A program made the translations under genes and the position numbers. A stretch of 64,000 bases of DNA. Origin: Bacillota bacterium. GTDB lineage: Bacteria > Bacillota > Clostridia > Oscillospirales > Oscillospiraceae. Where the stretch lies: positions 1 through 64,000 of the forward strand of contig JAEWRY010000028.1 in NCBI GenBank assembly GCA_023459875.1, given 5' to 3'. This document shows positions 1,074 to 18,680 of the stretch, piece after piece. Positions within the stretch are counted from its first letter, which is position 1; every line of letters begins with the position of its first letter. The notes below the pieces were generated by a model. The model searched no databases. It was not told the DNA's origin and was given only the letters and a program-made list of their open reading frames with translations.

Positions 1074-1078
1074 GATTA

Positions 1079-2188
1079 TCACTCCTTTTTTGGTTCGCGT
1101 TTGGGCGGACAGGAAGGACCGGGGACCCGTGGAGGACCGCCCTTGGACGGTCCGGACGGACGGGTGGAATCGGAAGGCGGCTCCCAGTCGGAAGGACCTT
1201 CCCAATGGACGGGACTGCTCCGGGAAGAATATTCATAGGGAGGTTCGCTCCGGTCGGGGGGCGTGCTGTGATCTCCACCGCCGAAGAAGTCGCAGGCTTC
1301 CCGCTCCAGTTCCCGGGTCTGGGGGAGGAGGGAGCGGCTCATCTGCTGGCCGAAGCTGAACGCCATGGGAAAGGCGGCGATGCCCGCCGCCGCTCCGGCC
1401 GCCCCGCTGCGCGAGCTATTCAGGAGAGCCTCCGACACCACCCGGCGGGCCATGCTGCCGCCGTAGAGGGCGTTCAGCTCGTCGCGCATGTTTTCCAGTT
1501 CCGTCTTTTTGCGCATACGGCTCTCCCGCAACTCTTGCAGCAGTGAGATTTCCTCCGGGCGTGGTTTCAGGTCGGCCATGCGCAGATCGGAGAGAGCCAC
1601 CCCGTACCCGGCCAGGGCGGCGGCCAGATCGTTTCTTAAAAGAGCCGAAAGCTCTCCGGTGAGCAGGGAGAGCTCCGCCGCCTGCCTGCCCGCCAACGCG
1701 GCGGAGAGCCGTGACTGGGCGGTCTGGCGGATGACGCCGGAGAAATACTGCTCGAAGGTCTCGCTCTCCAGATTGTCCCAGCCGGACACCGTCTGGAGGA
1801 GCCGCCGGCCGTCGATGACGCGCAGGTAGAGCGACAGCTCGGCGCTCAGGTGGAAGAGATAGCCCCCGTCCATGGAGGAGAGCAGCTCGCCGGTGGAGGA
1901 CTGGACCAGGGACTCGGCATCCAGATTGACGAACCATACCTGGGCCTGCACCGGCAGCACCCCGCCCGTCATCATGGTCTGGAGCCGGCGGAAGAAGGGG
2001 CTTACGCCGGTGGTGAGGTTATAGCTTCCCGGCGGGTATTCTCCGCTCCAGGCGCCGTTCAGGAGAAAATAGGCCCGCCAGCCGGGCGGGACGAAGAGCC
2101 TGGTCCCGTCGGCAAAGGCGGTCACCGCGGCTCTGGAAACAAGCTTGCCCGCGCCAGGGGCGGGCTGAAGCACCGAAATGGGGATCAT
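1079..2188 (-). CDS. SPFH/band-7 (stomatin/flotillin-like) domain protein with a Pro/Ser-rich disordered C-terminal tail.
   Basis: ORF 1079..2218 trimmed to the ATG at 2188 (AGGAGG RBS, spacing 8). N-terminal domain resembles SPFH (Band_7_1, YqiK-like) proteins. C-terminal ~70 aa is low-complexity and P/S/E-rich. Confidence 0.65.
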   Translation of the reverse strand: MIPISVLQPAPGAGKLVSRAAVTAFADGTRLFVPPGWRAYFLLNGAWSGEYPPGSYNLTTGVSPFFRRLQTMMTGGVLPVQAQVWFVNLDAESLVQSSTGELLSSMDGGYLFHLSAELSLYLRVIDGRRLLQTVSGWDNLESETFEQYFSGVIRQTAQSRLSAALAGRQAAELSLLTGELSALLRNDLAAALAGYGVALSDLRMADLKPRPEEISLLQELRESRMRKKTELENMRDELNALYGGSMARRVVSEALLNSSRSGAAGAAAGIAAFPMAFSFGQQMSRSLLPQTRELEREACDFFGGGDHSTPPDRSEPPYEYSSRSSPVHWEGPSDWEPPSDSTRPSGPSKGGPPRVPGPSCPPKREPKKE

Positions 2189-2205
2189 TGTTTCGCGCCT
2201 CCTTT

Positions 2206-2250
2206 CTGATGATTTCATACTATCAAAAACCGTCTCTAGATTCTTCAGGG
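2206..2250 (-). promoter_or_regulatory. Promoter-motif copy C upstream of the SPFH/membrane/ZnR-TPR block.
   Basis: Minus strand reads CTGAAGA-atc-TAGAGA-cggtttttga-TAGTAT-gaa-ATCATCAG-aaaGGAGG. Overlaps the 3' end of the transglutaminase-like ORF. Confidence 0.5.
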
Positions 2251-2957
2251 TACCTGGGCGTGTGGTCCCTGGACATTTTCTCGGGAGTGAGGTTAAAGTA
2301 CCGGCGGCTGGAGAGGCCCATGAACCTTCGCAGCGGACCTGTCTGTCCCCCGTCCCAGGTCACGTCCACCATTCGCGGCTCCCCGCCGAGCTCCACCAGG
2401 TTCCAGGCGTGGCCCTCCCCTCCGGCGAAGCCCCTCACCACGGCGCAGGGGATGCCGCTCCGGCGGCAGAGCAGGGCGAAGGCCTTGCTGTAGCCCTCGC
2501 AGAGAGCCTCGCACTCCAACAGGGCGGCAGCCGCTGTGGCGGGATAGTAGCCGGCTCCGTCCCGGTAAGAGACATAGCCCGCCAGGGCGTCGTGCAAAAT
2601 GAGCTCGCGCTTCTCCGGGTTCGCTTCCCGCATGGCGAGCTTTGTGATGCGCTCCACCCGCCCCTCCAGCGCCCGGCCTACAGACGAGCGCCCGGACGGA
2701 GTAAAGAGGTAGTTGGGGATTAACCGGAAGGTGTTGGGGCCCTCCGCATGGCGGTAGCTGCACAGGTCGGCCCAGAAAAGCCCCGGGCAGTCGAAGCGCA
2801 GGGCCAGCATGGCGGCGTTCAGATCGCCGGCCCGCCCGGGGCCGCCGTCCGGGGGAAGGGGAATTTTTCCGCTCATGGAGAAAAGCCCGCCTCTGATGAG
2901 GCGGTAATAGAACTTGCCTCGAGGGGTGAGGCTGCCATAATAGAGACGCTCCAGCAT
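2223..2957 (-). CDS. Transglutaminase-like superfamily cysteine protease.
   Basis: Cys-His-Asp core visible: ...GIPCAVVRGFAGGEGHAWNLVEL...MVDVTWDG. AGGAGGA RBS, spacing 4. Confidence 0.7.
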   Translation of the reverse strand: MLERLYYGSLTPRGKFYYRLIRGGLFSMSGKIPLPPDGGPGRAGDLNAAMLALRFDCPGLFWADLCSYRHAEGPNTFRLIPNYLFTPSGRSSVGRALEGRVERITKLAMREANPEKRELILHDALAGYVSYRDGAGYYPATAAAALLECEALCEGYSKAFALLCRRSGIPCAVVRGFAGGEGHAWNLVELGGEPRMVDVTWDGGQTGPLRRFMGLSSRRYFNLTPEKMSRDHTPRYPEESRDGF

Positions 2958-2966
2958 AGCGTCCTC

Positions 2967-3695
2967 CTACTGCGTATCCCGGCGGAGGGTGAAGGTGCCC
3001 CGGCGGTGGCCCAGGGTCCACTCCCCGGCCCAGACCCGTTTTGACTTTTTCAGTTTCGGCAGGGCGCAGCGCCAGACGGAAGCCTCCTCCTGTCCTGGGC
3101 CGCACCAGGCCTTGATGACGCTTGTGTGGGGATTTGAGATGAGGGTGGTCCACGCGTTGTTCCGGCAGGCCCGGCTGTGGGCCAGCTGATCCGTCCCGCT
3201 CATGAAGACGCCCAGGTCTCCGGGGTGGGTGTGGGCCATGGAGGTAACCAGCCACGCGGGCCCATACTGGTCGCAGAAGGGATTGAGGGAGTGGGGATCG
3301 TCCCGATAGCGCAGTTGCTCCCGGTTGAGATCGGCAAGGCTCTCGGAGGCGCGGCTTGCCATGACCGAGGTGCGCTCGGGGCACTGGATACTCTGGAAGA
3401 AGCTCTGGACGTGATAATGATACTCCCCGTCCTCCAGCAGCAGCCCCAGGCCCCGCAGCCTCTGTTCGTCCCGGTTCATGGGGTGGATAAGGCCCCAGTG
3501 CAAAATGGCTGCGTACTCCTCCCAGCCTTGAGGTGTGAAGAGAATCACATGTTTACCCGATCCCTCCCCGAGACATTCCGGCTCCGCCCCCGGCCACCGA
3601 GTACGGATGAGGTCCATGAGGGCGGCGCCGCTATCAATGTGCTGGTAGAGGGGGGGAAGGGGGCCCCGCATGGGGAGACGTTTGTTCTTTTCCAT
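2967..3695 (-). CDS. JAB/MPN (JAMM)-like metallopeptidase, candidate deubiquitinase/Ubl-processing peptidase.
   Basis: Motif MAHTHPGDLGVFMSGTDQ is H-x-H-x8-S-x2-D, i.e. the JAMM Zn site with one extra residue in the spacer. AAGGAGGA RBS, spacing 6. Lies directly downstream of the E2-like gene. Confidence 0.55.
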   Translation of the reverse strand: MEKNKRLPMRGPLPPLYQHIDSGAALMDLIRTRWPGAEPECLGEGSGKHVILFTPQGWEEYAAILHWGLIHPMNRDEQRLRGLGLLLEDGEYHYHVQSFFQSIQCPERTSVMASRASESLADLNREQLRYRDDPHSLNPFCDQYGPAWLVTSMAHTHPGDLGVFMSGTDQLAHSRACRNNAWTTLISNPHTSVIKAWCGPGQEEASVWRCALPKLKKSKRVWAGEWTLGHRRGTFTLRRDTQ

Positions 3696-3707
3696 AGCCG
3701 GTCCTCC

Positions 3708-4295
3708 TTAATGAATCCGCCCGGGTACGCGCCCGGGAGCGCGTGCCGCCGCACGCATTCCGGTACTGCCGGGGCTTCTGGAAGAGCCCGCCTTGGGGAT
3801 AAGGGTGTAAATGAGGTGCGGCGGCAGCAGAGGCAGGGAGAAGCGGCGGCATACGGCGGGGTAGACCGCCTTGATTTTTTTGTTGGCCGCGTCATTGGGA
3901 TTTACGGCGGAGTCGTCCAGAATGCACTCCAAAAGCAGCTTGCGCAGCAGATCGGTGATGGAGGTATCGCTGTAAAAATTGCCGATACAGGCCTGGCCGC
4001 TCTCGAAAATGTTGGGGCTGAAGGGGCGGCGGCTCGGATCGGGGAAGGCGACCAGAGGCTTGCCGCCCAGAGGGAACCCGGTTGGGAGCCAAAACTCCAG
4101 GTACGCCCCCTTGGACATGCGCACCCCCGCGGGGTCCTCGGGGCTTCCTACTAGAATGGGGATGCCCGCCTCCACGGAGATATGGTCGCCGCTTATCATC
4201 TTGACGCGCAGCGCTCCGCCCGCGCGCCCGTCCAGAGCCAGTAAAGCGTCCGTCTGGCGCTTTTTCGCAGCGAGATTGGCTTCAAATTCCGTCAT
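3708..4295 (-). CDS. UBC-fold E2-like ubiquitin-conjugating enzyme homolog (BilB/bacterial-E2-like).
   Basis: Active-site signature FSPNIFESGQACIGNFY matches the UBC HPN-x(5-7)-G-x-IC-L pattern, with SPN in place of HPN and a catalytic Cys. Its ATG overlaps the E1 stop (ATGA). AAGGAG RBS, spacing 7. Confidence 0.6.
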   Translation of the reverse strand: MTEFEANLAAKKRQTDALLALDGRAGGALRVKMISGDHISVEAGIPILVGSPEDPAGVRMSKGAYLEFWLPTGFPLGGKPLVAFPDPSRRPFSPNIFESGQACIGNFYSDTSITDLLRKLLLECILDDSAVNPNDAANKKIKAVYPAVCRRFSLPLLPPHLIYTLIPKAGSSRSPGSTGMRAAARAPGRVPGRIH

Positions 4296-5521
4296 GATAA
4301 CCACTCCTTATCATCGCCCGAGTGCAGTTCGGACTCGTCGTTTGCGCAGCAGAAGCAGGTGAGGCCCCGTTCGTTCTCAGCGTAGAGGAAGTCCCCAACT
4401 CCGAAGCCCAGCCGGAAGAGGGAGAGGTTCAGAAGCTTGGGGTCTGATGATGTCGTGAGGAAGGCGCACAGCTCGGGCAGGGGCAGCTCCAGGCGTTCCA
4501 GCCTGGCGGGGGAGCCAGACGAAGCACAGGCGCGGCAGAGAAGGTTTTTTTCCACTACCCGGCGGGCGGGGGCCATCGGTTCGAGGGGAGCCCCGCAGGC
4601 ACGGCAATAATCCCGAAGCAGAAAGGGGGAGCCGGGCGGCAGATGGAGGCGTGTGGGACCCATTTTGCGCTCGATGCGCGAGAGCGCTTCGCCCGCTGTG
4701 AGAGAAAAGACCGAGGAGCCTTCCAGCGTCAGCAGCTTCACCGGGGGCGTGAGGGGGCAGGCCTTGCAGTCCCGGGTCTTGGTGAGGGGGGCGCTGCGAA
4801 ACTCCAGGGTCCGGCCGCTGAGCCAAAAGCGGCGGTTGAGGCACCAGCGCTCTCCGCGCAGGTCAGCCAGCAGCAGGTAAATTCCCGCCGTCACCGACGC
4901 CGTCCCCGCCAGCACGCTGGTCTGAACCTGAAGGGAGGAAGTATCCGTTCCGTAAGAAACCCCGCAGCGGCGGCGGTGTTCGGCGTCTTCACCCTCCAAC
5001 TCGCCCAGGTAACATTCAAGGCAGGAGTCCTCCCCGTCCAGCAGGGCGGCGGAGGAGAGCTCTTCCATGGTGCCCAGGAGAATAAGGCGGGGCCGCCGGC
5101 GGCCCGGCAGGAGCGGTATCTGCTTCCACAGGCGGTTTATCCAGAGCTTGGCGGCGTAGTTGTCCACGCCCACGAAGAGGTAGTCGAACCCCGCCAGGGC
5201 GGAGGGACCCAGGTCCTGCACCAGACCCCTGATGCCGGTGACCTCTCCGGAGGGCATCAGTTCCCGGAGCCTCCGGGCGGCTGCGGGGGCCTTATAGTCC
5301 CCCACGTCGGCGCCGGTGTAGAGGGCGGATTTGGCCAGGTTGCGGGCCTCCAGGCGGTCGGGGTCGATGAGGGTGAGGTGCTCCGCGCCCGACTGAACCA
5401 GCAGGGAGCACAGCAGGGAGCCAAGGGAGCCCGCCCCCACCGACAGAATGCGCAGGGCGCGCATCTCCTCCAGGGGCACTGAGAGCTTTGCGGGGTCGAG
5501 AATCATTTTTTGGCTCTTCAT
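4292..5521 (-). CDS. E1-like ThiF/MoeB-family adenylyltransferase with an extra Cys-rich (multi-CxxC) C-terminal domain.
   Basis: Rossmann GxGxxG: RILSVGAGSLGSLLCSLLVQSGAEHLTLIDPDRLEARNLAKSALY. C-terminal ~200 aa carries CLEC, CKAC, CRAC, CRAC and CFCC pairs. GAGGAGG RBS, spacing 7. Confidence 0.85.
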   Translation of the reverse strand: MKSQKMILDPAKLSVPLEEMRALRILSVGAGSLGSLLCSLLVQSGAEHLTLIDPDRLEARNLAKSALYTGADVGDYKAPAAARRLRELMPSGEVTGIRGLVQDLGPSALAGFDYLFVGVDNYAAKLWINRLWKQIPLLPGRRRPRLILLGTMEELSSAALLDGEDSCLECYLGELEGEDAEHRRRCGVSYGTDTSSLQVQTSVLAGTASVTAGIYLLLADLRGERWCLNRRFWLSGRTLEFRSAPLTKTRDCKACPLTPPVKLLTLEGSSVFSLTAGEALSRIERKMGPTRLHLPPGSPFLLRDYCRACGAPLEPMAPARRVVEKNLLCRACASSGSPARLERLELPLPELCAFLTTSSDPKLLNLSLFRLGFGVGDFLYAENERGLTCFCCANDESELHSGDDKEWLS

Positions 5522-5533
5522 AAAGCCGCCTCC

Positions 5534-5917
5534 TCAATGGATTTTCACATGGGGATGAAACCGGTACTGGCAGCGGGTGCAGAAGTACTCTCCCCCGCCA
5601 GCCCTGCGGATCACGCGGCGGTTTTGCGCGGTGTTGCGGCAGCCCAGAACCGGGCAGACGGGAAACCGCAGCTCGGGCGGCAGCGCGGCCCCGGAAACGG
5701 GCAGGCGGGTGGGTAAGGCGCGCGCGCTCGGGCAAGGGGAGGTGGGGACTGCGGTACTGCGGGTCACGGCCGGGGAAGCGTGTCCCGAAGCGGGATGGGG
5801 CGAGCGGGGCGGGTGGTCGGGGCGTCTTCCGCGCCCGAACCGTTTTCGCAGGAAACCCAGGAGCGCGGCGGCCGCCGTGCCCGCGCAGAAGACGCATATC
5901 AGCAGGTGCCACGCCAT
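5534..5917 (-). CDS. Small protein: N-terminal TM helix, Pro/Ser-rich linker, C-terminal zinc ribbon (CPVLGC...CTRC).
   Basis: Strong RBS AGAGGAGGAG, spacing 6. Hydrophobic N-terminus MAWHLLICVFCAGTAAAALLGFL and two CxxC pairs at the C-terminus. Sits between the Ubl candidate and the E1. Confidence 0.5.
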   Translation of the reverse strand: MAWHLLICVFCAGTAAAALLGFLRKRFGRGRRPDHPPRSPHPASGHASPAVTRSTAVPTSPCPSARALPTRLPVSGAALPPELRFPVCPVLGCRNTAQNRRVIRRAGGGEYFCTRCQYRFHPHVKIH

Positions 5918-5935
5918 GGAAGCTCCTCCTCTTTT

Positions 5936-6337
5936 TTAGCTGACCGCACCCGCGCCGGTGTCGTTGTCAATGAGCAGCCGGTCGCCCTTTTGTATGCCCA
6001 TGTCCTCCACGGTGACGTTCAGGGCGCTTTTTACCGACAGAGGCTTCTCCCCGCGCACCACGCAGCAGGTGAACTTCTCCTTGGCCCGATTCCCGGCGAG
6101 TTCCTCCTCGGTGATGAGACCCAGGTTGCGGAGAATCTGACCGAAGGTGTTTTCGGGGTAAACGTAGTAAGGCTCCTCCACCGCGCTGCCTTCCACCGAA
6201 AACTGCACGCTGATGTGGATGGCGTCCGGGTCCTCCCGGGAAAGGGACGCGCTATCTTCCCCGGCGGCTGTGTAGGCCTTCGTATCCTCCGGGGTCATGA
6301 TGCTGGAAAGCTCGTCGTTGTAATCACTGGTTTTCAT
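5936..6337 (-). CDS. Candidate ubiquitin-like (beta-grasp) protein with an acidic N-terminal extension; 133 aa.
   Basis: First gene after promoter copy B. AAGGAGG RBS, spacing 8. A ~90-aa C-terminal region alternates hydrophobic strands (HISVQFSV..., ...IQKGDRLLI) and ends ...DNDTGAGAVS, Gly-containing but not GG-terminal. Position directly upstream of E1/E2/JAB. The fold is inferred, not demonstrated. Confidence 0.4.
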   Translation of the reverse strand: MKTSDYNDELSSIMTPEDTKAYTAAGEDSASLSREDPDAIHISVQFSVEGSAVEEPYYVYPENTFGQILRNLGLITEEELAGNRAKEKFTCCVVRGEKPLSVKSALNVTVEDMGIQKGDRLLIDNDTGAGAVS

Positions 6338-6372
6338 CGCAATAACCTCCTTTTTTTGTGGGGTGTTGTTCC

Positions 6373-6418
6373 CCTGATGATGAGAGTATACCGCCGCGCA
6401 TCTCTAAGTTCTTCAAGG
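6373..6418 (-). promoter_or_regulatory. Promoter-motif copy B upstream of the Ubl/ZnR/E1/E2/JAB/TGase block.
   Basis: Minus strand reads TTGAAGA-act-TAGAGA-tgcgcggcgg-TATACT-ctc-ATCATCAGG. Lies in the 95-nt gap between the phosphatase stop and the Ubl RBS. Confidence 0.55.
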
Positions 6419-6432
6419 CCCCGCGGCGGTGC

Positions 6433-7086
6433 TCACGCGTAAAACTCCGCCATGTCCTCCAGACGCAGGCAGGCCAGGCGGCGGCCGGGAAGCTCCAGAT
6501 GTCCGCAGCCGCAGTCGATGCCCACGGCCCCCGCGCCCCGCCAGACGCGCCAGTGACCGTCCAAAAGCCGCGGGGAGTAGAGCCAGGTGGGCGTGTGGCC
6601 GAAGATAACCGCCTCCTGTCCCGTAAGGCGGCAGCCAGCGTCCGCCTCAAAGCGTCCCCAGAGCCGCAGATAGGGGTCATCCGAGGGCATCCCGTGCACC
6701 AGATGAAACGTTTTATCCCCCACCCTCAGATGAAGCGCATCGGGCAGCGCCCCAAGATGCGCGAGCAGCTCTTTCCTCTTTCCGGGCGGCAGGGTCAGAA
6801 ACCGGCACAGGGTCTGCTCGCCGCCGTTATTGGCCCACTTGGTGAGGGCCGTGGCGGGGTAGCCAGGCATCAGCGCCTCCAGCATCATCTGCTCGTGGTT
6901 TCCCCGGAGCAGAACAGCGCCGGACAGGGCAAGCACGTCCTGCAAAAGCTCGATGGATTCCGGCCCACGGTCGATCACGTCGCCGAGGATATAAAGCCGG
7001 TCGCGGGTCCCAAAGCTTACCGCCTCCAAAACGGCGTGAAACCGGTCCCGCTCTCCGTGGGGGTCCGAAAGGCAATAGGTGCTCAT
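6433..7086 (-). CDS. PPP-family (PP2A/ApaH-like) Ser/Thr metallophosphatase.
   Basis: Calcineurin-like motifs DPHGE...GDVIDRG...GNHE. GGGAAGGA RBS, spacing 5. Confidence 0.85.
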   Translation of the reverse strand: MSTYCLSDPHGERDRFHAVLEAVSFGTRDRLYILGDVIDRGPESIELLQDVLALSGAVLLRGNHEQMMLEALMPGYPATALTKWANNGGEQTLCRFLTLPPGKRKELLAHLGALPDALHLRVGDKTFHLVHGMPSDDPYLRLWGRFEADAGCRLTGQEAVIFGHTPTWLYSPRLLDGHWRVWRGAGAVGIDCGCGHLELPGRRLACLRLEDMAEFYA

Positions 7087-7108
7087 AACAGTCCTTCCCG
7101 CGCCCGGC

Positions 7109-8278
7109 TCAGAAGCCGATGGCGCTCCGGGTAAGCCGGTCCCGGCACCGCAGGCTTCCCTCCAGCTCCCGCTGGGTGAGGGTGACGCAGCCGCCGCCCT
7201 TCACATGGCTGAGGTACCCGGCGCTCACCATGTCTTCAATGAGGGTCTGGTAGGGCCTCACGCTGCGCACCCCCTGGCGGTAGAGCCGGTCGGTGAGCTG
7301 CTCCACCACGCCGGGGGCAAAGGAGACGGCCGAGCCGCAGCCGAAGCGGGCCATGGCCTCGGGAATGGTGTGGCGGCGCAGGATCTGGGAAATCTGCTCC
7401 CGGTCGCAGGCTGGGAAGCTGATGACGTCGCACCGGTCCAGGAGAGGCTCGCTCACGCAGTTCAGGTCGTTGGCCGTAAGCACCTTGGGACAGTAAAGGG
7501 CGTTAATGGGAAAGCCCAGGAAGTGATCGGTAAAGCCCAAGGCCGATTCGTCGGTGAGATCGAGAAGATCGTTTTGCAGGTCTCCACCCATAGGGGTGCG
7601 CTCCGGAATTTTATCCACCTCGTCAAAGAGCAGCTCCGGACTGCCGCAGCGGGTGAGGCACATGCCCTCCGCCACCGCGCCGGGTCCCGAGTTTACCACC
7701 GAATTGGGCTCTCCCCCCAGGCCGCGCCCCCGGGCGGCCCTGGGGGCGTTAATGTAGTGGCAGGGAAGTCCCAGCATAAGCGCGAAGGTCCTGGCCGCCC
7801 TGGTTTTGCCGCAGCCCGGAATCCCCGTGAGCAGAATGGGACGGGTCATGCCCGTGCAGGCGTGTTCGGCCGCGTGGAGCAGCAGCTTGTCATAGACCTC
7901 GTCCAGCCCGCACATTTCCCGTTCCCAGACAGAGCGGCAGTACTCGACGAAAGCGCCGTCGGCGGGTCCCGTTTCTGCGGCCCACTGGGGCAAGTCCCGG
8001 ATGGCGGCTACCCACCTGCGCAGATGGCCGCTGCCGCTGCGCAGAGCCGCGCGGTACTGCTCCTCCACCATGGGGGGCATTTCATAGATTTTCCGACCGC
8101 CGGGCTTTTTCCCGCCGTTTTGGGGCAGGGGACGAAGGGGAGAAAGCCGCGGCTCAATTTCCTCGTCCTCTATTTCGTCTTCTTCCCCCTCGGGGATCAG
8201 CAGCTCAAGGAGCTGCCGGAGCGATAATTTTCCGAGCATTCTCAGAACCTCCTCCTTGCGCGCGTCTTCTCGCTGCAT
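7109..8278 (-). CDS. AAA+ ATPase with an acidic N-terminal region.
   Basis: Walker A ILLTGIPGCGKT and Walker B LLFDEVDK. AGGAGGTG RBS, spacing 5. Confidence 0.8.
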   Translation of the reverse strand: MQREDARKEEVLRMLGKLSLRQLLELLIPEGEEDEIEDEEIEPRLSPLRPLPQNGGKKPGGRKIYEMPPMVEEQYRAALRSGSGHLRRWVAAIRDLPQWAAETGPADGAFVEYCRSVWEREMCGLDEVYDKLLLHAAEHACTGMTRPILLTGIPGCGKTRAARTFALMLGLPCHYINAPRAARGRGLGGEPNSVVNSGPGAVAEGMCLTRCGSPELLFDEVDKIPERTPMGGDLQNDLLDLTDESALGFTDHFLGFPINALYCPKVLTANDLNCVSEPLLDRCDVISFPACDREQISQILRRHTIPEAMARFGCGSAVSFAPGVVEQLTDRLYRQGVRSVRPYQTLIEDMVSAGYLSHVKGGGCVTLTQRELEGSLRCRDRLTRSAIGF

Positions 8279-8310
8279 AGCCGCACCTCCTATGGGGATT
8301 CCGGCGAATA

Positions 8311-9108
8311 TCAGACCGCCGCATCCCCGTTTTTCCTTTCGGACAAAGCCTTTCCGCCGTCTTCTCCCCAGGGTTCCTCGGTGGCATTCTCCCCGCCCTC
8401 AACAAGACGAACCGGCCCGGCGAATCGTTCGGCGGCAAGCCTGGCCAGAAGCCGTCTGGCGCGGTCAAAGCCGTCGCTCCCGTCCGGCTCGGTCTCGCAC
8501 TCGGCTATTGAGATTGCTTCGGCCTGAGGTTCCTCGTCGGCGGGAAAACCGTCATCACCGTCTTCCTCCTCAGCCTCTTCCAAAAGGGCCATTTTCTCCT
8601 CGTACTCGTGCTCCCGGTTCATCCGCCTGATCTCCGCCCTGATTTCCGCGACGCTTTTGGGCTTGCAGGGGGGCTCGCCGTGGGTGACGCGCTCCAGATT
8701 TTCAAAGTGGATTATGAGATGCATGACCATGCGGGATTCCAGCTCGCTGAAGTTTTCAGCCGAAATTGGGCCTCCCGAGAGGCTCTGGGCGTAATAGAGA
8801 TAGACGCGGCCGGTCTCCGAGCGCAGGAACTTGAAAATCATGTTCGCGTCGTTGATGGGGGAGACGTAAGCGTCGAAGGCGCGCTGGTAGCACTTATCGC
8901 AGGTGATGCCGGGGGCGATCTCGATCATCGCCACCCGGGCGCGTTGGTTCACGATGAACTTAATATAATAGGTATGGCCATAGGAAATGGTCTCCACCAA
9001 AAATCCGTCCCGCTCGGCGAAAAGCTCACCCTTGCAGTTGTAAGCACTGTGCGAAACGTATTCCTTCAGACCGGTTAGGGTTTCCATAGCGTAGCTGCGT
9101 TCGTTCAT
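8311..9108 (-). CDS. Hypothetical protein: possibly YbjN/T3SS-chaperone-like N-terminal domain, highly acidic C-terminal tail.
   Basis: GAAGGAGACG RBS, spacing 6. First gene after promoter copy A. N-terminal ~150 aa globular, C-terminal ~100 aa rich in E/D. The YbjN-like assignment is a weak inference. Confidence 0.45.
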   Translation of the reverse strand: MNERSYAMETLTGLKEYVSHSAYNCKGELFAERDGFLVETISYGHTYYIKFIVNQRARVAMIEIAPGITCDKCYQRAFDAYVSPINDANMIFKFLRSETGRVYLYYAQSLSGGPISAENFSELESRMVMHLIIHFENLERVTHGEPPCKPKSVAEIRAEIRRMNREHEYEEKMALLEEAEEEDGDDGFPADEEPQAEAISIAECETEPDGSDGFDRARRLLARLAAERFAGPVRLVEGGENATEEPWGEDGGKALSERKNGDAAV

Positions 9109-9148
9109 GACGATCGTCTCCTTCTATTCATTTTGCGCGGTTGTTCTT

Positions 9149-9192
9149 CCTGACGATAAGAATACGCCGCGGTATCTCTAAAATCTTCAAGG
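9149..9192 (-). promoter_or_regulatory. Promoter-motif copy A upstream of the 265-aa/AAA+/phosphatase block.
   Basis: Minus strand reads TTGAAGA-ttt-TAGAGA-taccgcggcg-TATTCT-t-ATCGTCAGG, ~40 nt before the RBS. Confidence 0.55.
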
Positions 9193-9231
9193 CAAAAAAA
9201 TCCGCGGTACGATGAAAATCGTACCGCGGAT
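9193..9231 (-). terminator. Intrinsic terminator after the 511-aa gene.
   Basis: Perfect 14-bp stem ATCCGCGGTACGAT / ATCGTACCGCGGAT with a GAAA loop, followed on the minus strand by TTTTTTT. Confidence 0.75.
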
Positions 9232-9247
9232 GAGATTTAATATAAAC

Positions 9248-10783
9248 TTATAGAAAGTCCCGGTGCCAGGCGCCGTCGGAGAGCTTCAGGCAGGGGAAGG
9301 AGATGCCCTCGTCGGCGATGCGCTCCACGAAGGCCTCCAAAAAGCAACCTTTTCCCTCCCGGCCCGGGCAGTCCAGCAGGGCAGACATCAATGCGTCGTC
9401 AGCGTTGTGTGGATCGAGGGGGGAGAAGCCCGCGCGGATGAGCATTCCGTCCAGCCGGGCAGCCGAGAGGCCCTCTCCCTGGGGGGAGGGATCGGCCAGG
9501 AAGACCAGCATCCTCACAAGAACGGGCCGGGAAATGGGGAGAAAACCGCTCACCAGCTGCTGGATTTTGTCCCGGCTGAAGCCCCGGGCAGAAAAACCCA
9601 GCGCGCCGTCCCCCGACGAACCATCTTCACCGCCACGTCCGGGTTTTCCTCGGCCTTGCGGGGCCTCAAAGACGCCGCACAGGAAGAATTCCAGCGCATC
9701 CTCTCGGATGCCGCTGTAGGTGAGCCGGAGCAGGTCGATATGTGCCGGCGTGAGGGCGGCTGTCCTGTCCCGGTACTGGGAAAGAGCCCCCAGGGTGAGA
9801 TACTCCGTCGGTTGAGGGCCGCGGAAAAGGGCAAGCCCCTCCGACAGGGCTTCCGGCGGGGCTTCGTCCGGCTTTCCAAAGACCCAAAGGGGGGCAAGAA
9901 GGTCGGAGATAAGACTCCGGTCGTAATCAGCGGGCCGGTTCAGCAGTCCGTCCCGCCGGGAAAGAGCCTTGTCCCGCCGGGAGAGAAAACCGGAAATCTG
10001 CCGGTCGACCTCTCGGAGAAGGGCGCGGCACAGGTAGATCCTCGCCCGCTCCCTGGCACCCGAGAAGTAGAGCGCCGCTTCTTTGCTCTCCAGGTACGCC
10101 CGAAAGACCTCCGGAGAGCCCCGGAGGCGGCTCACCGTGTCGTGGGCGTCACTGGTGAGGTCCAGGGTGATCTCCGGTGTGCCGGGCTGTCTGCTTTCGG
10201 TTACGAAACGGCGCAGCTGCCAGAGATATTCGATCATGCCGCCGGAAACGCCGGGCCTGTATCCGTCGCAGACCGGCTTCAGCTCCGACTGCCAGCGGAA
10301 GAGGTCCATGCCGTTATTGAGGGCGAAGATGACGCTGGCATCCTCCACCGAGCGGGCGTAGAGCCGGTCGTACCCCGTAAAGCGCAGCAGCTCGTTGGCT
10401 CCCTTCTCGTCCCGCCCCAGAGCGAAGGCCAGGGCGATGACCGCCCGCCGCTCCGAGGCGCAGTCCAGCCCCGCCTGATCGGCGAGGACCCCGCGTTCCA
10501 AGCTGCGCTCCAGGTAGCGGGCCGCCCGCTCCCGGCCACTCCCCTGGGAGAGCGTGTCCCCCACGTAGGCGGATACCATTTCGGCGTACCGCTCGTCCCG
10601 GGTCCAGTTGCACAGGAGCTTGGTTAGCTTCTTGCGGCGGCGGGAGTTCATATTCTCGGGCTTGGTGAGGTTCAGGGGACGGCAGAGATCGGGATCCAGG
10701 CTGTACCAGTACTCCTGCTTGTCGAAGAAACGGCTTATGTAGCGGTCGGCGAAGCCGGCGCCGGAAAGTTGGGGCTCGGGCAT
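9248..10783 (-). CDS. Hypothetical protein, 511 aa, no recognisable domain.
   Basis: ORF 9248..11077 trimmed to the ATG at 10783 with AAGGAGG RBS (spacing 6), 13 nt after the stop of the giant kinase-NACHT gene. Followed by an intrinsic terminator. Confidence 0.6.
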   Translation of the reverse strand: MPEPQLSGAGFADRYISRFFDKQEYWYSLDPDLCRPLNLTKPENMNSRRRKKLTKLLCNWTRDERYAEMVSAYVGDTLSQGSGRERAARYLERSLERGVLADQAGLDCASERRAVIALAFALGRDEKGANELLRFTGYDRLYARSVEDASVIFALNNGMDLFRWQSELKPVCDGYRPGVSGGMIEYLWQLRRFVTESRQPGTPEITLDLTSDAHDTVSRLRGSPEVFRAYLESKEAALYFSGARERARIYLCRALLREVDRQISGFLSRRDKALSRRDGLLNRPADYDRSLISDLLAPLWVFGKPDEAPPEALSEGLALFRGPQPTEYLTLGALSQYRDRTAALTPAHIDLLRLTYSGIREDALEFFLCGVFEAPQGRGKPGRGGEDGSSGDGALGFSARGFSRDKIQQLVSGFLPISRPVLVRMLVFLADPSPQGEGLSAARLDGMLIRAGFSPLDPHNADDALMSALLDCPGREGKGCFLEAFVERIADEGISFPCLKLSDGAWHRDFL

Positions 10784-10796
10784 AAAAGGCCTCCTT

Positions 10797-13700
10797 TCAG
10801 TCTCCGAACACGGCGCCGCAGCGGCGGAAAAATTCCAGGTCCCACGGGGTGGGCTCGGGCATGATGCCGCGCATGGAAGCGCCCGACACCTCCAGGCGCT
10901 CCATTTGCGCCAGGGGCGAAGCGTCCACAAAGACCGCGGCGGAAGGGGATGGGGAGCCCAGTCGCCGGAGCGCGAAGGCCTTTTTGGAACGTTTCTCCGT
11001 CTTGCGATAGTACTGCGCGTGTTCGGAAGCAGTTGTTTGTGGGTCGGAGAGATCGATGGGGGAATCGAGCAGCACAATGGTGCGGTTGTTTATCTGCCGC
11101 AGGTCGGCGACGGCCATGGCGTCGTACCGCTCCAGCACCTGTCCGTCAGACAGGCTAACCTCCAGGGTGAGCCAGGCGTCGAAGAAGGAGAGCAAAACGG
11201 TATCTCCGCTCAGAAGGAAGACTCGAAGGCTGCTCCCCCTTCTGTTTCTTGGGCATTTGAGCTGTCCTATTTTGAGAAGGCGCGGATCAGTAGCAACCCG
11301 GGCGGCAAGGAGGGGGGCGGTGTCCACGGGAACGGCTGTGCCGGCGCTCAGGGCAATGCGGCAGAGACCCGCTCTGGCGGGAAGTTCCTCTCCGCTTGTC
11401 AGTCTTCTAGCGAAATTATAAATAAAGGAGCAGGCGGTGTCTCCCAGAAAACCCAGATCGGCCTCGGCCAGGAGGAGCTTCTTTTTGCTGCCCTTTTCGG
11501 AGCTTCCCGCGTCGGGGAACGGATCGAACCGGCACAGGGGAATTCCCGGCTCCCCCGGAGTTCCCCGCGTCACCACGGCGGTATCCGGGTCGGGAAGGCT
11601 TAGGGTGAGCAGAACGCCGTCCCCGGTGAGAACGGCGGGCCAGCCGCCGTAGAGCCTCCGGTTGACCTGCGCAGCGTCTTGCCCCGCGAGATCGGTGAGA
11701 TATTCCATGCCGGGAAAGTCCACGCCAAAGATCAGGTTGTTTTCCAGGCGCCGTCCAGGGCCGATCCAGTGCTTCAGCGTGCCCAGCACCTTACCGACGG
11801 CGGTCGGCGCGTCGATGGCGGCGGACTCTTCCAAACACCAGATTCTTCCGTCCGCCGTCACGGGGCGCGCCTGACCTACCTCATCCAGAAACAACATCTG
11901 CACCCGGTGGCTGCGGAAGACGATCTGTGAAGTGAGAAGTCCGCTTTTTGTGCTGTATTCTTCCAGACCGTCCGCGCTGAGCATGGCAATGCGGTCGGCG
12001 CTGCGGGAATAGACCGCGCCCAGATAACCGCTTGCCTTCCTGCCTAACTGCCGGGGCTGCCCCCCGGCGGCATTTCCGCCCGCCGTCAGCTCACGAAAGC
12101 TGGAGCCCAGACGCTGGAGGACATAGCCGGGGCGGGAGGTCTTACCGCTTTTGAACTCCTCCAGTTGGGTGTAGTGGGAATGGTCTTTCGTTAATTCCAG
12201 ACGGGCGGAGAGGCTGCCGTCCTCCTCCTGAACGAGATAATACTGAAGAATCCTCATCTGTCTATGCTCACCCTCAAGCTGGACTCCCAGCCGTCCCTCC
12301 GGCTGGGGGACGGCACAGGTGAGCCGGAACCCTTGGGCGGTCTCTCCGTCGGGCGGACAAAACTCCAGGAGGCCTTCCCCCGTGCCCGCGTTTATGATGC
12401 ACACCGTGTTGTCCGAGAGGATCACCGCCAGCCATCCCTGCTCAGGCAGGAGAATGAAATGTACCAGCGCCGCGTCGCCGTGGGTTTCGGGCGAGACCGC
12501 CAGGCTGAACACAAGGCCCTCCTCCCACAAATCGAGACAGAAAAGGGTTTTCGTGTACGCCAGATAGAGAAAACGGCCGGAGGGCCCGTATTCCATTCTG
12601 CGATAACCGGAGTCGCCGGGCAGATCAAGTTCCCGCAAGTCGTCCAGCATCAGGAAGGCTCCGTCCAGTCTGGCACCGGATAGGGGCGCCGTGCGCAGCC
12701 GCGCCCGGGAGAGGTCCAGGCGGGACAGGTCTTCGCCCGCCAGGGTGCCGCGGCGGAGCAGCAGGGCCTCCGTCAGGTTGGCCGCCGCCGTGGCGAAACT
12801 GCCCCCCATGGCTCCCGCGTATTCCACGGCGTTAAAAAGGGTGAGTCGGGTGTGCTCCTTCCTATCCCCCAGGGTAAAACGCAGGGTTAAATTCTGCGCG
12901 GACAATACGGGCAGTAATGGAAAGACTGTTGAATCCGGAATTTCAAACGGAAGGTCGTCGGTCTCCAGGAGTTCGTCCAGATCATCCGCCGTCAGAGGCC
13001 TCTTACGATTAAGCGACATGTTGATGATCCAGATGAGATTGGAAAAGTTGATCCAATTCTCGCTTAAAAGTTCCAGGGCCTCGTTGCCGTAGCCAGCGAG
13101 GCTTTGACTGTTGATGGGATCGAAGAACCCACGAAGGCTCTCCAGCGCCCCGCGCAGAGACGCGCAGTCCTCCCCACACAGCTCTCCCAGCCGCAGGCAG
13201 ACCGCCCGGCTCAGGTGATAGCGGCCCAGTTCGCTTTTAAGGCTCTCCGGGCCGGAGTGGCGCAGGAGGGATTGGAGCAGCCCGTCGGCGCAGAAAATTT
13301 CCCGCATGCTGTCATGGGCCAAGGAATACCACCGGTCCTCCAGGCGCAAAAGGCCGGTGCCGAGCAGCATGTTCAGAACCCGGCCGTTGCGGAGGGAGGT
13401 CAGGCGCAGGTCGCCGTAAGGGTCGGCACTTTTTTGCCATTGAGGGTCGAGCAGCTGCTGTAATTCTTCCTTACTGTCGAAATATCCGAAGTCCAGGAGC
13501 ATTTTCTCCGCCGGGCGGAGCAGGCCGTCGGGGCTGTCCGCCAGCAGCAGGGATTCGACAGTTCTTACCCGGGCGATGTCTTTGTCGAAGGAGGCCAGCG
13601 AGCGCTCCTCCTCCCTGTCCTCTCCAAAGGCGGGATAGCCGTATTCCCGCAGCTCCATGGCGCTCTCCGGGAGGGTCATACGGTGGAAAAAGAAGTTGAG

Positions 13701-15797
13701 GATGCTTTCGATCCCGTTGCGGCTGATGCCGAACCAGAATTCGTCGGTGCACAGCTGGCAGGCCAGGTAGGGCAAAAATTCCCGCACCAGCAGGCAGTAC
13801 GCGCCGAAGCTGCCGCCGCTGCGGTTATCCCAGAGCTTGGAGAGCACATATTCCCGGTAGTTGAGCATGATCTGGGAAGCCGTGCGGGCGGAGGGAAGGA
13901 ACCGGAAGCGCGGGTCGCGCAGAAGGGAGCGGTCGATGACTGCCCGTTCGCTCAGGGCGTACATCTTGAGAAGCATGGGAGATTCCAGCACCTGGCGCAG
14001 GCTGTCGCCCTCGGGAACCGGCGGTAAGCCCGAAGCGGAAAGGTAGCCGTCGATCTGGCCTGTGTCCAGGGCCGCGAGCTCGGCAAGGCCAAGCCCCAAG
14101 CCCATAAAGTTCGTCTGCCGCATGTCCGACTGGGCCGAGAGCACGACCCTGATGCCGGGCAGAGCCATGAGTCGCGAAAGCTCCGATACCAGCGCTCCGA
14201 AGTCCTCCTCTCCCGCCGCCTCGTTGAGGCCGTCCGCCAGGAGGAGAAAGCCCGGAGCGTCCCCGGCAGTCTCCCGGAAGCAGTTTAGAAAGGGCAGCTC
14301 GGCGTCATCCTCGTCCAGACGCCCGGCGTAGCGGGAGAGGATGTAGTCCCGGACAAAGTTAGCCTTATCCCCTGCGTCCCTAAAAGCACGAAGAGGCACA
14401 TAGAGGGGTACCGGAGCGTCGGGCCGGTAACATTCCGTCAGAGTCACGGCGGCGTGGAGCAGGGCGAAAGTCTTGCCCCGCATGCCGGAGCCCTGGAGAA
14501 ACAGATGGCCCCGGGTACTGTCAAGCAGGGCAAAAAGGTTCTCTTCCGCCGGGGAGGAGGCGCTCTCCTCCGGAACCAGCCGGCAGCGGGCAAGAAGGGC
14601 TTCCTGCGGCGTTTCCGGCAGCGCCCGGGCAAAGCGCCGGGCGCCTGTAAAAAGCACCTCCCGGCAGACGCCCCGGTTTTCGATCACCCGGCGCAGACGG
14701 TCGAGACCCCGGGTGAGGGCGGCGAGGGTGAGGCGGCTCTCCGCCGGGCGCTCCAGCGCCGGACGGAGAAGTTCTTCTTTGAGAAGGCTCCGGGCCGACT
14801 CGGGGATAGCGTCGAGAGCGGGGGAGGAGAGCTCCAGCTCGTCGCAGTCGTAAGGCTGGCCGGTGACCATTTCAAAGAGGATGGCGGCAATGGAATAGAC
14901 GTCGGTCTCGGGCCGCAGGAGCCGCAGGGCCTCTCCGGGGTCGGGGTGGTTCACCTGCCGTCCAAGCTCGGGCGCGGCGTAGTGAAGGGTGGAGGTGAGC
15001 CTGGGCAGGATGGCGAGGCGGAGGCGGCGGTCCTCTTCGCCCTTTCCCAGCGGGAAGGCGCTGCCCAGGTCCAGCATCCGGAAGACCCGCCGTCCCTCGT
15101 CTCCGTCCAGCTCCAGGCGGGTGCAGTAGATGTTGTCGGGTTTTATATCCAAATGAAGATAGGGGGCGGGGCTGCCGTCCCGTCCCAGATGGCCGTGGAG
15201 CTGGGCGGCGGCTTCGGCGATCCGCCGGGTCCAGGCGAGGGCGGTCAGCGCGCCCTGCTCCCGGTCGTCGTGGAGCTTCCGGCGCCGCAGCAGGTCGGAG
15301 AGGGGCTCGCCCCCCGTGGTGTCGCACAGGAGAAAGGCACCGTACCTGGGCGCGCCAGCTCCCAGCCACTCCGGGCCGTCGCAGCCCTCGCGGATGAGAG
15401 AGGCATAATCCTCCAGCTCGGTGAGGGCGGCGTAGTAGAAATAATCGTTATTGCTCCTTTCCCCGTACAGGGCGCACAGCTCCCCGCACACCGCCGCCTC
15501 CCGCCGGAAGAGCAAGGCCGACTGAAGAAACCGGCGGCGCTCCTCCGCAGAGGCATCCTCCAGCACCATGACGCCCTCCGGAGTGACGCGCAGCTTTTCC
15601 CGCAGAGAAGCGGGGCAGAAGAGTTTGAGGGCGAACACCCGCGCCTCTCCCTGCCGCGCCGCCTTGAAACAAAGAGAGCTGCCTCCTGAAGACAGCCGTT
15701 CCAGCAGCCGGAAGCCTCCCAGAGCGAAAAAAGAATCCATATCCAAGACAAGCCGCCTCCTTCCGACAGAGTATTTAAATATTCTAAATAATAACAT
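10797..15797 (-). CDS. Giant STAND protein: eukaryotic-like Ser/Thr kinase, then NACHT NTPase, helical/pentapeptide repeats and a WD40-like beta-propeller. The true start is probably the internal ATG at 15740.
   Basis: Kinase: G-loop LSSGGSSLCFKA, VFALKL, catalytic HLDIKPDN (~15130-15160), DLGSA, YAAPE. NACHT: Walker A GSGMRGKT (~14466-14500) and Walker B FLLLADGLNE. Pentapeptide repeats: DLSRLDLSRARLRTAPLSGARLDGAF. C-terminus: WD40-like repeats. The first ATG at 15797 lies inside promoter copy D. ATG 15740 has a GGAAGGAGG RBS upstream, spacing ~15. Confidence 0.85.
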   Translation of the reverse strand: MLLFRIFKYSVGRRRLVLDMDSFFALGGFRLLERLSSGGSSLCFKAARQGEARVFALKLFCPASLREKLRVTPEGVMVLEDASAEERRRFLQSALLFRREAAVCGELCALYGERSNNDYFYYAALTELEDYASLIREGCDGPEWLGAGAPRYGAFLLCDTTGGEPLSDLLRRRKLHDDREQGALTALAWTRRIAEAAAQLHGHLGRDGSPAPYLHLDIKPDNIYCTRLELDGDEGRRVFRMLDLGSAFPLGKGEEDRRLRLAILPRLTSTLHYAAPELGRQVNHPDPGEALRLLRPETDVYSIAAILFEMVTGQPYDCDELELSSPALDAIPESARSLLKEELLRPALERPAESRLTLAALTRGLDRLRRVIENRGVCREVLFTGARRFARALPETPQEALLARCRLVPEESASSPAEENLFALLDSTRGHLFLQGSGMRGKTFALLHAAVTLTECYRPDAPVPLYVPLRAFRDAGDKANFVRDYILSRYAGRLDEDDAELPFLNCFRETAGDAPGFLLLADGLNEAAGEEDFGALVSELSRLMALPGIRVVLSAQSDMRQTNFMGLGLGLAELAALDTGQIDGYLSASGLPPVPEGDSLRQVLESPMLLKMYALSERAVIDRSLLRDPRFRFLPSARTASQIMLNYREYVLSKLWDNRSGGSFGAYCLLVREFLPYLACQLCTDEFWFGISRNGIESILNFFFHRMTLPESAMELREYGYPAFGEDREEERSLASFDKDIARVRTVESLLLADSPDGLLRPAEKMLLDFGYFDSKEELQQLLDPQWQKSADPYGDLRLTSLRNGRVLNMLLGTGLLRLEDRWYSLAHDSMREIFCADGLLQSLLRHSGPESLKSELGRYHLSRAVCLRLGELCGEDCASLRGALESLRGFFDPINSQSLAGYGNEALELLSENWINFSNLIWIINMSLNRKRPLTADDLDELLETDDLPFEIPDSTVFPLLPVLSAQNLTLRFTLGDRKEHTRLTLFNAVEYAGAMGGSFATAAANLTEALLLRRGTLAGEDLSRLDLSRARLRTAPLSGARLDGAFLMLDDLRELDLPGDSGYRRMEYGPSGRFLYLAYTKTLFCLDLWEEGLVFSLAVSPETHGDAALVHFILLPEQGWLAVILSDNTVCIINAGTGEGLLEFCPPDGETAQGFRLTCAVPQPEGRLGVQLEGEHRQMRILQYYLVQEEDGSLSARLELTKDHSHYTQLEEFKSGKTSRPGYVLQRLGSSFRELTAGGNAAGGQPRQLGRKASGYLGAVYSRSADRIAMLSADGLEEYSTKSGLLTSQIVFRSHRVQMLFLDEVGQARPVTADGRIWCLEESAAIDAPTAVGKVLGTLKHWIGPGRRLENNLIFGVDFPGMEYLTDLAGQDAAQVNRRLYGGWPAVLTGDGVLLTLSLPDPDTAVVTRGTPGEPGIPLCRFDPFPDAGSSEKGSKKKLLLAEADLGFLGDTACSFIYNFARRLTSGEELPARAGLCRIALSAGTAVPVDTAPLLAARVATDPRLLKIGQLKCPRNRRGSSLRVFLLSGDTVLLSFFDAWLTLEVSLSDGQVLERYDAMAVADLRQINNRTIVLLDSPIDLSDPQTTASEHAQYYRKTEKRSKKAFALRRLGSPSPSAAVFVDASPLAQMERLEVSGASMRGIMPEPTPWDLEFFRRCGAVFGD

Positions 15798-15819
15798 AGC
15801 TCTTCTCTAAATTCCACAG
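15788..15819 (-). promoter_or_regulatory. Promoter-motif copy D (divergent, weaker match) upstream of the kinase-NACHT gene.
   Basis: Minus strand reads GTGGAA-tt-TAGAGA-agagctatgt-TATTAT. Same TAGAGA-N10-TAnnnT core as copies A-C, with the upstream TTGAAGA-N3 half shifted by one base. Confidence 0.35.
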
Positions 15820-18667: not shown

Positions 18668-18680
18668 AATAGGGTCCTCC

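Follow-up and report, generated by a model that had tools for sequence, protein, structure and literature searches.

Several described promoter systems use an activator box, set at a fixed short distance from the −10 hexamer, in place of the −35 element. In pho-box promoters (E. coli PhoB; OmpR/PhoB class II), tandem direct repeats with a period of 11 bp replace the −35 hexamer. In Streptomyces, the kinase AfsK phosphorylates the STAND-type regulator AfsR, and the SARP heptameric repeats have an 11-bp spacing and stop 8 bp short of the −10 hexamer. The middle promoters of phage T4 have a MotA box with its centre at −30 and a distance of 12 ± 1 bp to the −10 hexamer, and sigma appropriation involves the phage proteins MotA and AsiA. 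We analysed a stretch of 64,000 nt from a Bacillota bacterium (contig JAEWRY010000028.1, positions 1 to 64,000), referred to here as the window, which is part of a 482-kb metagenome scaffold. It carries an island of genes in which a 16-bp element with an invariant TAGAGA box stands at the head of each of four gene blocks, ordered D, C, B and A on the minus strand. The D block encodes a kinase-nucleoside triphosphatase (kinase-NTPase) of 1649 amino acids (aa) and a 511-aa protein (p511). The elements, their spacing and placement, their conservation and their specificity are direct observations. As judged from the sequence, the element appears to be a conserved cis-regulatory promoter module of the island family, always oriented with the genes at a block head. 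By analogy, the activator boxes named above would be its closest counterparts in function.

A sequence-only reading of the window had reported four motif copies, each heading a gene block. This is borne out by a search with YTGNNGANNYTAGAGA-N10-TANNNT, which matches exactly four sites in the window, copies A–D, all on the minus strand. Copy A (2248..2206) reads CTGAAGAATCTAGAGA-N10-TAGTAT-gaaatca-TCAG, with the box CTGAAGAATCTAGAGA at 2248..2233, the −10 hexamer TAGTAT, preceded by TGn, at 2222..2217 and TCAG at 2209..2206 (full read, cCCTGAAGAATCTAGAGAcggtttttgaTAGTATgaaatcaTCAGaaaggagg). Copy B (6416..6374) reads TTGAAGAACTTAGAGA-N10-TATACT-ctcatca-TCAG, with the box at 6416..6401, TATACT at 6390..6385 and the end of TCAG at 6374 (full read, gCCTTGAAGAACTTAGAGAtgcgcggcggTATACTctcatcaTCAGgggaac). 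Copy C (9190..9150) reads TTGAAGATTTTAGAGA-N10-TATTCT-tatcg-TCAG, with the box at 9190..9175, TATTCT at 9164..9159 and the end of TCAG at 9150 (full read, gCCTTGAAGATTTTAGAGAtaccgcggcgTATTCTtatcgTCAGgaagaac). The weaker copy D (15819..15788), which heads the kinase-NTPase and 511-aa genes, reads CTGTGGAATTTAGAGA-N10-TATTAT (full read, tTCCTGTGGAATTTAGAGAagagctatgtTATTATttagaata). The relaxed core YTGNNGA-NN-YTAGAGA-N10-TANNNT thus has four sites in the 64-kb window versus 2e-4 expected by chance, and the stricter YTGAAGA form matches A, B and C versus 1e-5 expected. With up to two mismatches, the 16-mer TTGAAGANNNTAGAGA gives six matches versus 0.95 expected, a number reached in 0/100 shuffles.

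The 16-bp element consists of two similar heptads with a 9-bp period, YTGAAGA-NN-YTAGAGA, of which the proximal TAGAGA is invariant. Re-reading confirmed the geometry: 20 nt separate TTGAAG from the −10-like hexamer, which TAGAGA precedes by exactly 10 nt. Setting the hexamer at −12 to −7 places TAGAGA at −28 to −23, YTGAAGA at −38 to −32 and the whole element at approximately −38 to −23. Other details of the first description require correction. The base-for-base alignment of A–C over ~45 nt is interrupted in C, which is 2 nt shorter between the −10 hexamer and TCAG than A and B. A distance of 25–45 nt between each copy and the ribosome-binding site fails for A, where the motif runs straight into it: TCAG directly joins the ribosome-binding site AAAGGAGG of the SPFH gene. 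The trailing ATCATCAGG, given as part of the motif, is its least conserved stretch and is gone in the A orthologue. Copy D does overlap the first in-frame ATG (15797), but this ATG is probably not the start, as the public gene call begins at 15746 (1649 aa).

Orthologous contigs from two other metagenomes (L003; L004, L142 and L143) carry the element at every promoter position present on them. The box is identical at 16/16 positions in 5/5 orthologous pairs, which cover A, B and C and include none for the copy D region; over the same pairs, the spacer is identical at 4–9/10, the upstream flank at 8–16/20 and the downstream flank at 6–15/20 positions, and the proteins preceded by these copies are only 54–78% identical. 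The A orthologue (L143) combines a 16/16 box with TATCCT at N10; both B orthologues (L003 and L142) keep the box at 16/16, as does the C orthologue of L003, together with 6/6 positions of the −10 hexamer; and the truncated C orthologue of L004 begins at TAATAT-gaaaa-TCAG. Paralogous copies A–D resemble one another only in the box (12–14/16) and the −10 hexamer, with spacers at random level (0–4/10), and the N10 spacing is kept in 10/10 full copies. Because box and −10 hexamer are conserved at a fixed distance over a random spacer, this pattern points to two protein-contacted elements and not to recent duplication. The transglutaminase-like gene contains copy A in its 3′ end (stop codon, 2225..2223), and the box of this copy is itself coding (P-E-E-S-R-D): all synonymous positions of the six codons are kept between orthologues. 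The transglutaminase-like C-terminus differs after PEESRD, reading GF* here and EIRYP* in the orthologue. Since the box-coded residues are kept and those after them differ, the DNA element constrains the C-terminus of the protein.

A more distant island, L146 (544..8843), carries a p511 homologue of 40% identity, then a terminator and then different effector genes: a 62-aa open reading frame (ORF), a SprT-like membrane protein, VWA, Tubulin_2, and proteins of 760 aa and 112 aa. Two more copies of the element are found there, both at operon heads, reading TTTAGAGAT-N9-CATTTG/TACACT-N5-TCAGAAAGGAG. The operon heads are ctctgtaattTAGAGAttttttctggCATTTGttgaaTCAGaaaggagg and cctcctgtttTAGAGAttgcacttggTACACTcacaaTCAGaaaggag, following the pattern TAGAGA-N10-hexamer-N5-TCAG. 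In D and in the L146 copies, a CTGT-type sequence stands in place of YTGAAGA, which is specific to A–C of the main island family. Because D and the L146 copies are without this upstream half, it is the TAGAGA box, and not a −35 spaced by 20 nt, that defines the element. On the sequences compared, the universal core is TTAGAGA(t)-N9/10-TAnnnT-N4-7-TCA. Of the gene upstream of the p511 homologue, the L146 contig holds only a 181-aa C-terminal fragment, and a fragmentary upstream protein is present in L145 as well; in L148, the protein upstream of the p511 homologue is 31% identical to the kinase-NTPase over ~1300 aa. A terminator equivalent to that at 9200..9231 in the window follows the p511 homologue in L146 and L148. 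From these contigs, the box is seen to travel with the 511-aa gene, and with the kinase-NTPase where this is visible, while the effectors change.

The surroundings of the copies help to locate the predicted start sites. TCA 4–5 nt past the hexamer puts a pyrimidine-purine start 7–8 nt after the hexamer (the A of TCA), and a start just after TAnnnT is indicated because in A, as at both L146 sites, the ribosome-binding site directly follows TCAG. Immediately upstream of copy C lies a strong intrinsic terminator (9200..9231, minus strand; 14-bp stem followed by T7), which ends the kinase-NTPase/511-aa operon and is conserved in L003. As C sits between this terminator and the ribosome-binding site, the promoter must lie in a 90-nt stretch. 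No terminator is found upstream of A and B. The predicted B transcript contains a GGGG-loop-CCCC hairpin 4 nt from its start (6360..6374, minus strand). A G/C hairpin is predicted in 3/3 B orthologues, with differing loops (L003, ~7823..7843; L142, ~984..998); shuffled sequence folds with an energy just as good, and the hairpin could be a 5′ stabiliser.

We compared the copies to the known promoter classes. Ordinary promoters of the window read TTGACA-N17-TATAAT before 32621, TTGACA-N17-TAATCT before 37540, TTGAAA-N17-TAAACT before 36636 and TTGCAA-N17-TAAACT before 60131. Since these follow the TTGACA/TTGAAA/TTGCAA-N17-TAnnnT form, the island promoters represent a distinct class in this organism; outside the island, no promoter of the window has the element. 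The island −10 hexamers are sigma-A-like (TATACT, TATTCT, TACAAT, TAGTAT, TATCCT, TATTAT and TAATAT), and 9/10 copies have such a −10, but nothing −35-like lies 16–18 nt upstream, and a consensus promoter scan flags only D, via TAGAGA-N17-TAGAAT. An extended −10 does not account for the set either: TGn occurs only in A (TGATAGTAT) and D (TGTTATTAT), and the B and C families have CGG, GCG or CCG. The 19–20-bp spacer of MerR-type promoters fits 7/7 A/B/C-type copies, at 20 nt, while D and the two L146 copies have no −35-like hexamer there; a MerR dyad is missing, as the right half of the spacer is unconserved and not complementary to TAGAGA, and the island proteins contain no MerR domain. Set against repeats of the PhoB/OmpR/SARP type, the element has two similar heptads, the proximal one ending 10 bp from the −10 hexamer, but they repeat every 9 bp, not every ~11 bp, and D and L146 preserve the distal one poorly; Trans_reg_C, BTAD and Response_reg gave no match in island proteins. 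None of the tested classes fits fully. We further rejected the Firmicutes sigma consensuses H, E, K, F, G, D, B, W/X/M and I, none of which fits; a LexA/Cheo box GAAC-N4-GTTC in the B and C leaders, of which by eye only GAAC is present; and inverted repeats (CCTTGAAGA versus TCATCAGG; AGAG...CTCT around the spacer), for which neither the A orthologue nor a comparison of the copies shows conservation. A register with TAGAGA as −35 and nATCAT 16–18 nt downstream as −10 fits D and loosely A–C, fails in the A orthologue and is of variable spacing; we regard it as secondary.

These comparisons bear on the proposal that an alternative sigma factor, encoded elsewhere or unrecognisably divergent, reads TAGAGA (or TGAAGA 17 nt from sGTA) as upstream element and G-TAnnnT as −10, which we consider unlikely. 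Two conserved blocks at invariant spacing do have the look of a sigma-factor promoter, the architecture is unlike the canonical promoters of the window, and a register TGAAGA-N17-(C/G)GTA, similar to that of extracytoplasmic function (ECF) sigma factors, fits A–C. The downstream hexamer, however, is a good sigma-A-type TAnnnT (TATACT, TATTCT, TACAAT, TAATAT), and neither D nor the L146 copies have the TGAAGA half. The ECF motifs 'AAC' and 'CGT' are absent as a pair: TGAAGA comes without AAC, the sequence 17 nt downstream is GGTA, CGTA or GATA, and CGT occurs only in C and its orthologue. The sigma-54 signature GG-N10-GC is absent from all copies. To our knowledge, a gap of 10 nt between TAGAGA and the −10 hexamer is shorter than any spacing of the sigma-70 family. 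The island and its flanks contain no recognised gene of the sigma-70, sigma-54 or ECF sigma families. The one related gene, for a sigma-54 activator, is located ~9 kb beyond the island, outside it and on the other strand.

Compared with the pho box, the element shares a sigma-70-type −10 without a functional −35, a box ending 10 bp upstream of the −10 hexamer and its use throughout a putative regulon; it differs in period (9 versus 11 bp) and in sequence, which is unrelated, and searches in and around the island detected no winged-helix response regulator. The likeness to the SARP/AfsR system extends from the heptameric direct repeats, which take the place of the −35 close to the −10 hexamer and at constant spacing, to the signalling chain of Ser/Thr kinase and STAND NTPase, two activities that would here be fused in the 1649-aa protein. 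Unlike that system, neither the 1649-aa nor the 511-aa protein contains a SARP or BTAD domain, and the organism, with its strong GGAGG ribosome-binding sites, has a Firmicutes-like appearance. T4 middle promoters likewise have, instead of a −35, a box that precedes an ordinary TAnnnT −10 at constant spacing, but no homologue of MotA or AsiA was found in the island, and viral contigs lack the motif apart from chance matches. For A–C, with TTGAAG spaced by 20 bp, MerR-like realignment by a spacer-bound protein would also be close: the spacer is over-long and the conserved box lies inside it. The spacer, in contrast to MerR promoters, holds no dyad operator, no MerR-family gene was found in the island, and D and L146 lack a −35-like hexamer at 19–20 bp.

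We regard it as about an even call that the four sites are co-regulated sigma-A-type promoters without a −35 hexamer that rely on a dedicated DNA-binding factor at approximately −38 to −23. In this mechanism, a sequence-specific factor would bind the 16-bp element and act stereospecifically on the RNA polymerase holoenzyme, whether by making up for the absent −35 contact or by bringing the over-spaced TTGAAG hexamer back into line. Joint expression of the four operons would require the factor, in whose absence the island would be silent. The four transcription units would comprise (i) the kinase-NTPase and the 511-aa protein, (ii) the 265-aa protein, an AAA ATPase and a phosphoesterase, (iii) the E1 block and (iv) the SPFH protein with a HerA-like ATPase and an HNH/WHH nuclease. 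The sensor operon would be subject to autoregulation, given that D has the box as well. The TAGAGA of copy D also forms the −35 of a canonical-looking TAGAGA-N17-TAGAAT (15809..15781, minus strand), and occupancy of the box at D could affect the sensor operon in the opposite direction to the other three.

Several points weigh against a dedicated activator. One of the L146 copies has a poor −10 hexamer (CATTTG), the upstream heptad is not conserved in D or L146, and tandem activators do not usually have repeats with a 9-bp period. The host genome is covered over ~82 kb, and a host-wide regulon built on the short TAGAGA-N10-TAnnnT core is possible. That the elements function as promoters, where transcription starts, that control is by activation and not repression, and which factor is responsible are all inferred from the sequence. 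Searches of the island with Pfam, NCBIfam, PADLOC and PDB sequences revealed no recognisable sigma factor or DNA-binding regulator. Of the original suggestion that a dedicated regulator or alternative sigma factor controls the whole island, an island-specific conserved cis-element at the block heads stands; neither a regulator nor a sigma factor was found in the island.

A repressor whose operator at −38 to −23 keeps active promoters shut until a signal arrives is, in our view, improbable as well. Many defence operons are under local repressors. The box overlaps the core promoter, a typical position for an operator, XRE-like proteins are commonly repressors, and p511, the only candidate factor, has remote XRE-type similarity; at D, where TAGAGA doubles as a canonical-looking −35, occupancy would repress. 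At B and C, by contrast, there should be little to repress, because these promoters have neither a −35 at 16–18 nt nor TGn and should be weak unaided. A repressor, moreover, needs no exact N10 phasing, yet this phasing is kept in 10/10 copies across diverged islands, and the box has no dyad symmetry.

The specificity of the motif was assessed by scanning the window and ~18 kb of additional scaffold (~82 kb in total) by position weight and regular expression. These ~82 kb contain no further copy except a one-mismatch core at 17774..17742, and all copies are located at operon heads and co-oriented with the genes, which does not fit repeats of the REP or MITE type. The strict pattern occurs at 13 metagenome loci, of which only the orthologous contig, with two copies, is real; the other loci are chance matches, all in lower-G+C contigs (28–48%). 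Absence from the metagenome collection is weak evidence because the collection is incomplete: JGI contig L142 fits the strict pattern yet was not returned. Among 2.9 million viral contigs, the strict pattern yields only one repeated chance match in a coding region, and a looser 15.5-base pattern gives at least 120 matches, those listed being single and due to chance. A generic repeat should appear at hundreds of unrelated sites, and the full motif does not do so in the metagenome, viral or ~82-kb scans. Within the window, Rfam and tRNA searches gave no match, and leaders fold no better than shuffled sequence. The motif strings yielded nothing relevant in the literature searched.

On this evidence it is very doubtful that a factor from a phage or mobile element, such as a middle or late activator, reads the box, and that the promoters sense infection by mimicking phage promoters. 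The proposal would explain why no regulator was found in the island, and a fixed short distance between box and sigma-A −10 without a −35 is the geometry of T4 middle promoters. The strict motif, however, has only chance coding matches in the viral contigs, p511 has no match in phage or plasmid records, and the box co-travels with the kinase-NTPase/511-aa module, for which a module-encoded factor would be simpler. Hardly credible is the absence of any dedicated regulation, be it a promoter cassette copied within the island or an RNA-level signal (processing or translation) in a long polycistronic transcript: A and B, having no upstream terminator, would receive read-through, and the B and C leaders share GAACAAC..CAAAA past the motif, yet paralogous spacers and flanks are random and hence not recent copies, conservation falls into discrete DNA blocks at fixed spacing that include TAnnnT, C follows a strong terminator, and neither a predicted structure nor an Rfam match was found.

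Returning to a dedicated activator of the four operons, a wider proposal can be made, to which we give tentative credence well short of even: the NLR-like kinase-NTPase and its 511-aa partner would form a portable sensor-regulator cassette that switches interchangeable effector operons via TAGAGA-box promoters. The cassette would act by transcription and not through a fused effector, turning on effector operons upon threat. The interchangeable effectors would be a ubiquitin-like conjugation set and SPFH-HerA-HNH here and SprT/VWA/tubulin-like genes elsewhere, with the TAGAGA cis-element as the 'plug' by which new effector operons join. As an NLR-like immune module, it would be wired like CIITA/NLRC5 or AfsK-AfsR. 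The L146 effector set resembles described vWA/tubulin conflict systems (PMC7159879). Seen alone, the motif is of an ordinary kind, a local regulon box, with unusual geometry. If the reading of one dedicated factor is right, a 20-kb island of four operons would be under one switch and would exemplify transcription-level wiring of an NLR-like sensor to modular effectors in bacteria. TTAGAGA-N10-TAnnnT would then be a compact, transferable signature that helps to define the genes of the system, otherwise impossible for domainless proteins, and that aids reporters for the inducing signal and capture of the DNA-binding factor.

The 1649-aa kinase-NTPase (10797..15746, minus strand) is the presumed sensor of the conserved module. 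It comprises an N-terminal Ser/Thr kinase, a P-loop NTPase, a pentapeptide repeat and a long C-terminal region. Its earlier label as a NACHT protein has no support from Pfam, which gives only Pkinase and a weak Pentapeptide match; a Walker A motif GSGMRGKT and a NACHT-like Walker B motif LLLADGLNE are visible by eye. The all-helical p511 (9248..10783, minus strand) follows it and precedes the terminator.

The factor probably travels with the kinase-NTPase/511-aa module, and p511 is the only candidate for binding the box, albeit a weak one. Its residues ~107–168 resemble the C-terminal half and extension of small XRE-type helix-turn-helix (HTH) proteins, to which residues ~88–168 can be aligned (BLASTP, E = 8e-10 to P0031; hhalign, 96% to P0049). 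The profile match spans only the C-terminal half of the HTH, which counts against the candidate; Foldseek gave no match for p511, and a better model of residues 40–180 (pLDDT 82) gave no HTH match. The p511 family has 43 representatives of ~450–480 aa, the closer of which (35–47% identity) stand directly after a large gene. Distant members (22–23% identity) are found in unrelated surroundings that lack the box; the informative members are those of the close subfamily alone. One distant member, P0080 (L153, 8001..16233), is immediately followed by three Pkinase genes, suggesting a kinase-partner relationship, and the member in Hominisplanchenecus (L149), which has no kinase neighbour, counts against one. 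Searching plasmid and phage records with p511 by tblastn gave no match.

Another precedent for a kinase with a DNA-binding partner is the HipA/HipB pair. HipA is not a Hanks-type kinase, and HipB is a small, clear HTH repressor that binds palindromes in its own promoter. The island shares with this pair a Ser/Thr kinase gene and a partner with XRE-type sequence features in one operon; p511 differs in being large and in having only a putative HTH. Kinase and XRE-HTH pairs such as HipA/HipB are treated in a published study (PMC8262856).

The remaining island genes, all on the minus strand, fall into the C, B and A blocks. The C block starts with the 265-aa protein (8311..9108), the first gene after copy C, which has no known domain, and continues with an AAA ATPase of 389 aa (7109..8278) and a calcineurin-like metallophosphoesterase of 217 aa (6433..7086). 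Headed by copy B, the B block (2223..6337) holds six genes. They encode, in order, a 133-aa protein, for which 'Ubl' is only the label given by the sequence-only reading; a 127-aa protein with a transmembrane segment and a Zn ribbon; a ThiF-type E1 of 409 aa; a 195-aa protein that is E2-like by eye; a 242-aa protein with a JAMM-like HTHP..SGTD motif, again by eye; and a transglutaminase-like protein of 244 aa. The A block within the window (600..2188) encodes the SPFH/Band-7 protein (369 aa) and a 157-aa membrane protein. Its operon runs past the window start, where it encodes a Zn-ribbon/TPR protein of 232 aa, a HerA-like ATPase of 872 aa and a Colicin-DNase/WHH nuclease of 242 aa, and the island (600..15746) thus extends ~5.5 kb beyond the window start (L141, 10504..14585). 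We considered the 872-aa protein as a single-subunit RNA polymerase with its own promoters and ruled this out, as it is HerA/FtsK-like. The window start coincides with an assembly gap, a run of N at L001 19113..19122 within the 232-aa gene.

PADLOC recognised no known defence system, returning only generic E1 and kinase matches. The island is extremely rare and known from only about three metagenomes. In a set of 5.8 billion proteins, just two homologues of the 265-aa protein turned up, and a single close homologue for each of the 133-aa and SPFH proteins. When species-representative genomes were scanned with the AAA ATPase, the one match, of 25% identity, was on an unrelated contig.

Beside the island, a block of 38% G+C (~17600..19800) lies inside a region of 60–65% G+C. 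It codes for a 319-aa protein with a weak match to the restriction endonuclease domain Mrr_cat and for a 303-aa protein without matches, and looks like separately acquired foreign DNA. The one-mismatch core in this insert, TAGAGG-N10-TAATAT-N7-TCAG (17774..17742, minus strand), is located at the 3′ end of the 303-aa gene and followed by a terminator-like hairpin (17681..17655), ~190 nt before a gene for a 192-aa membrane protein. It may be a chance occurrence in AT-rich DNA or a fifth, weak site with a short transcript. Further along, the long ORFs 19985..20995 (minus strand) and 21093..22175 (plus strand) look spurious, with low-complexity translations; the ORFs 20108..21184 and 21214..22167, both on the plus strand, are probably real and by eye resemble an inositol-phosphate synthase and a sugar kinase, respectively.

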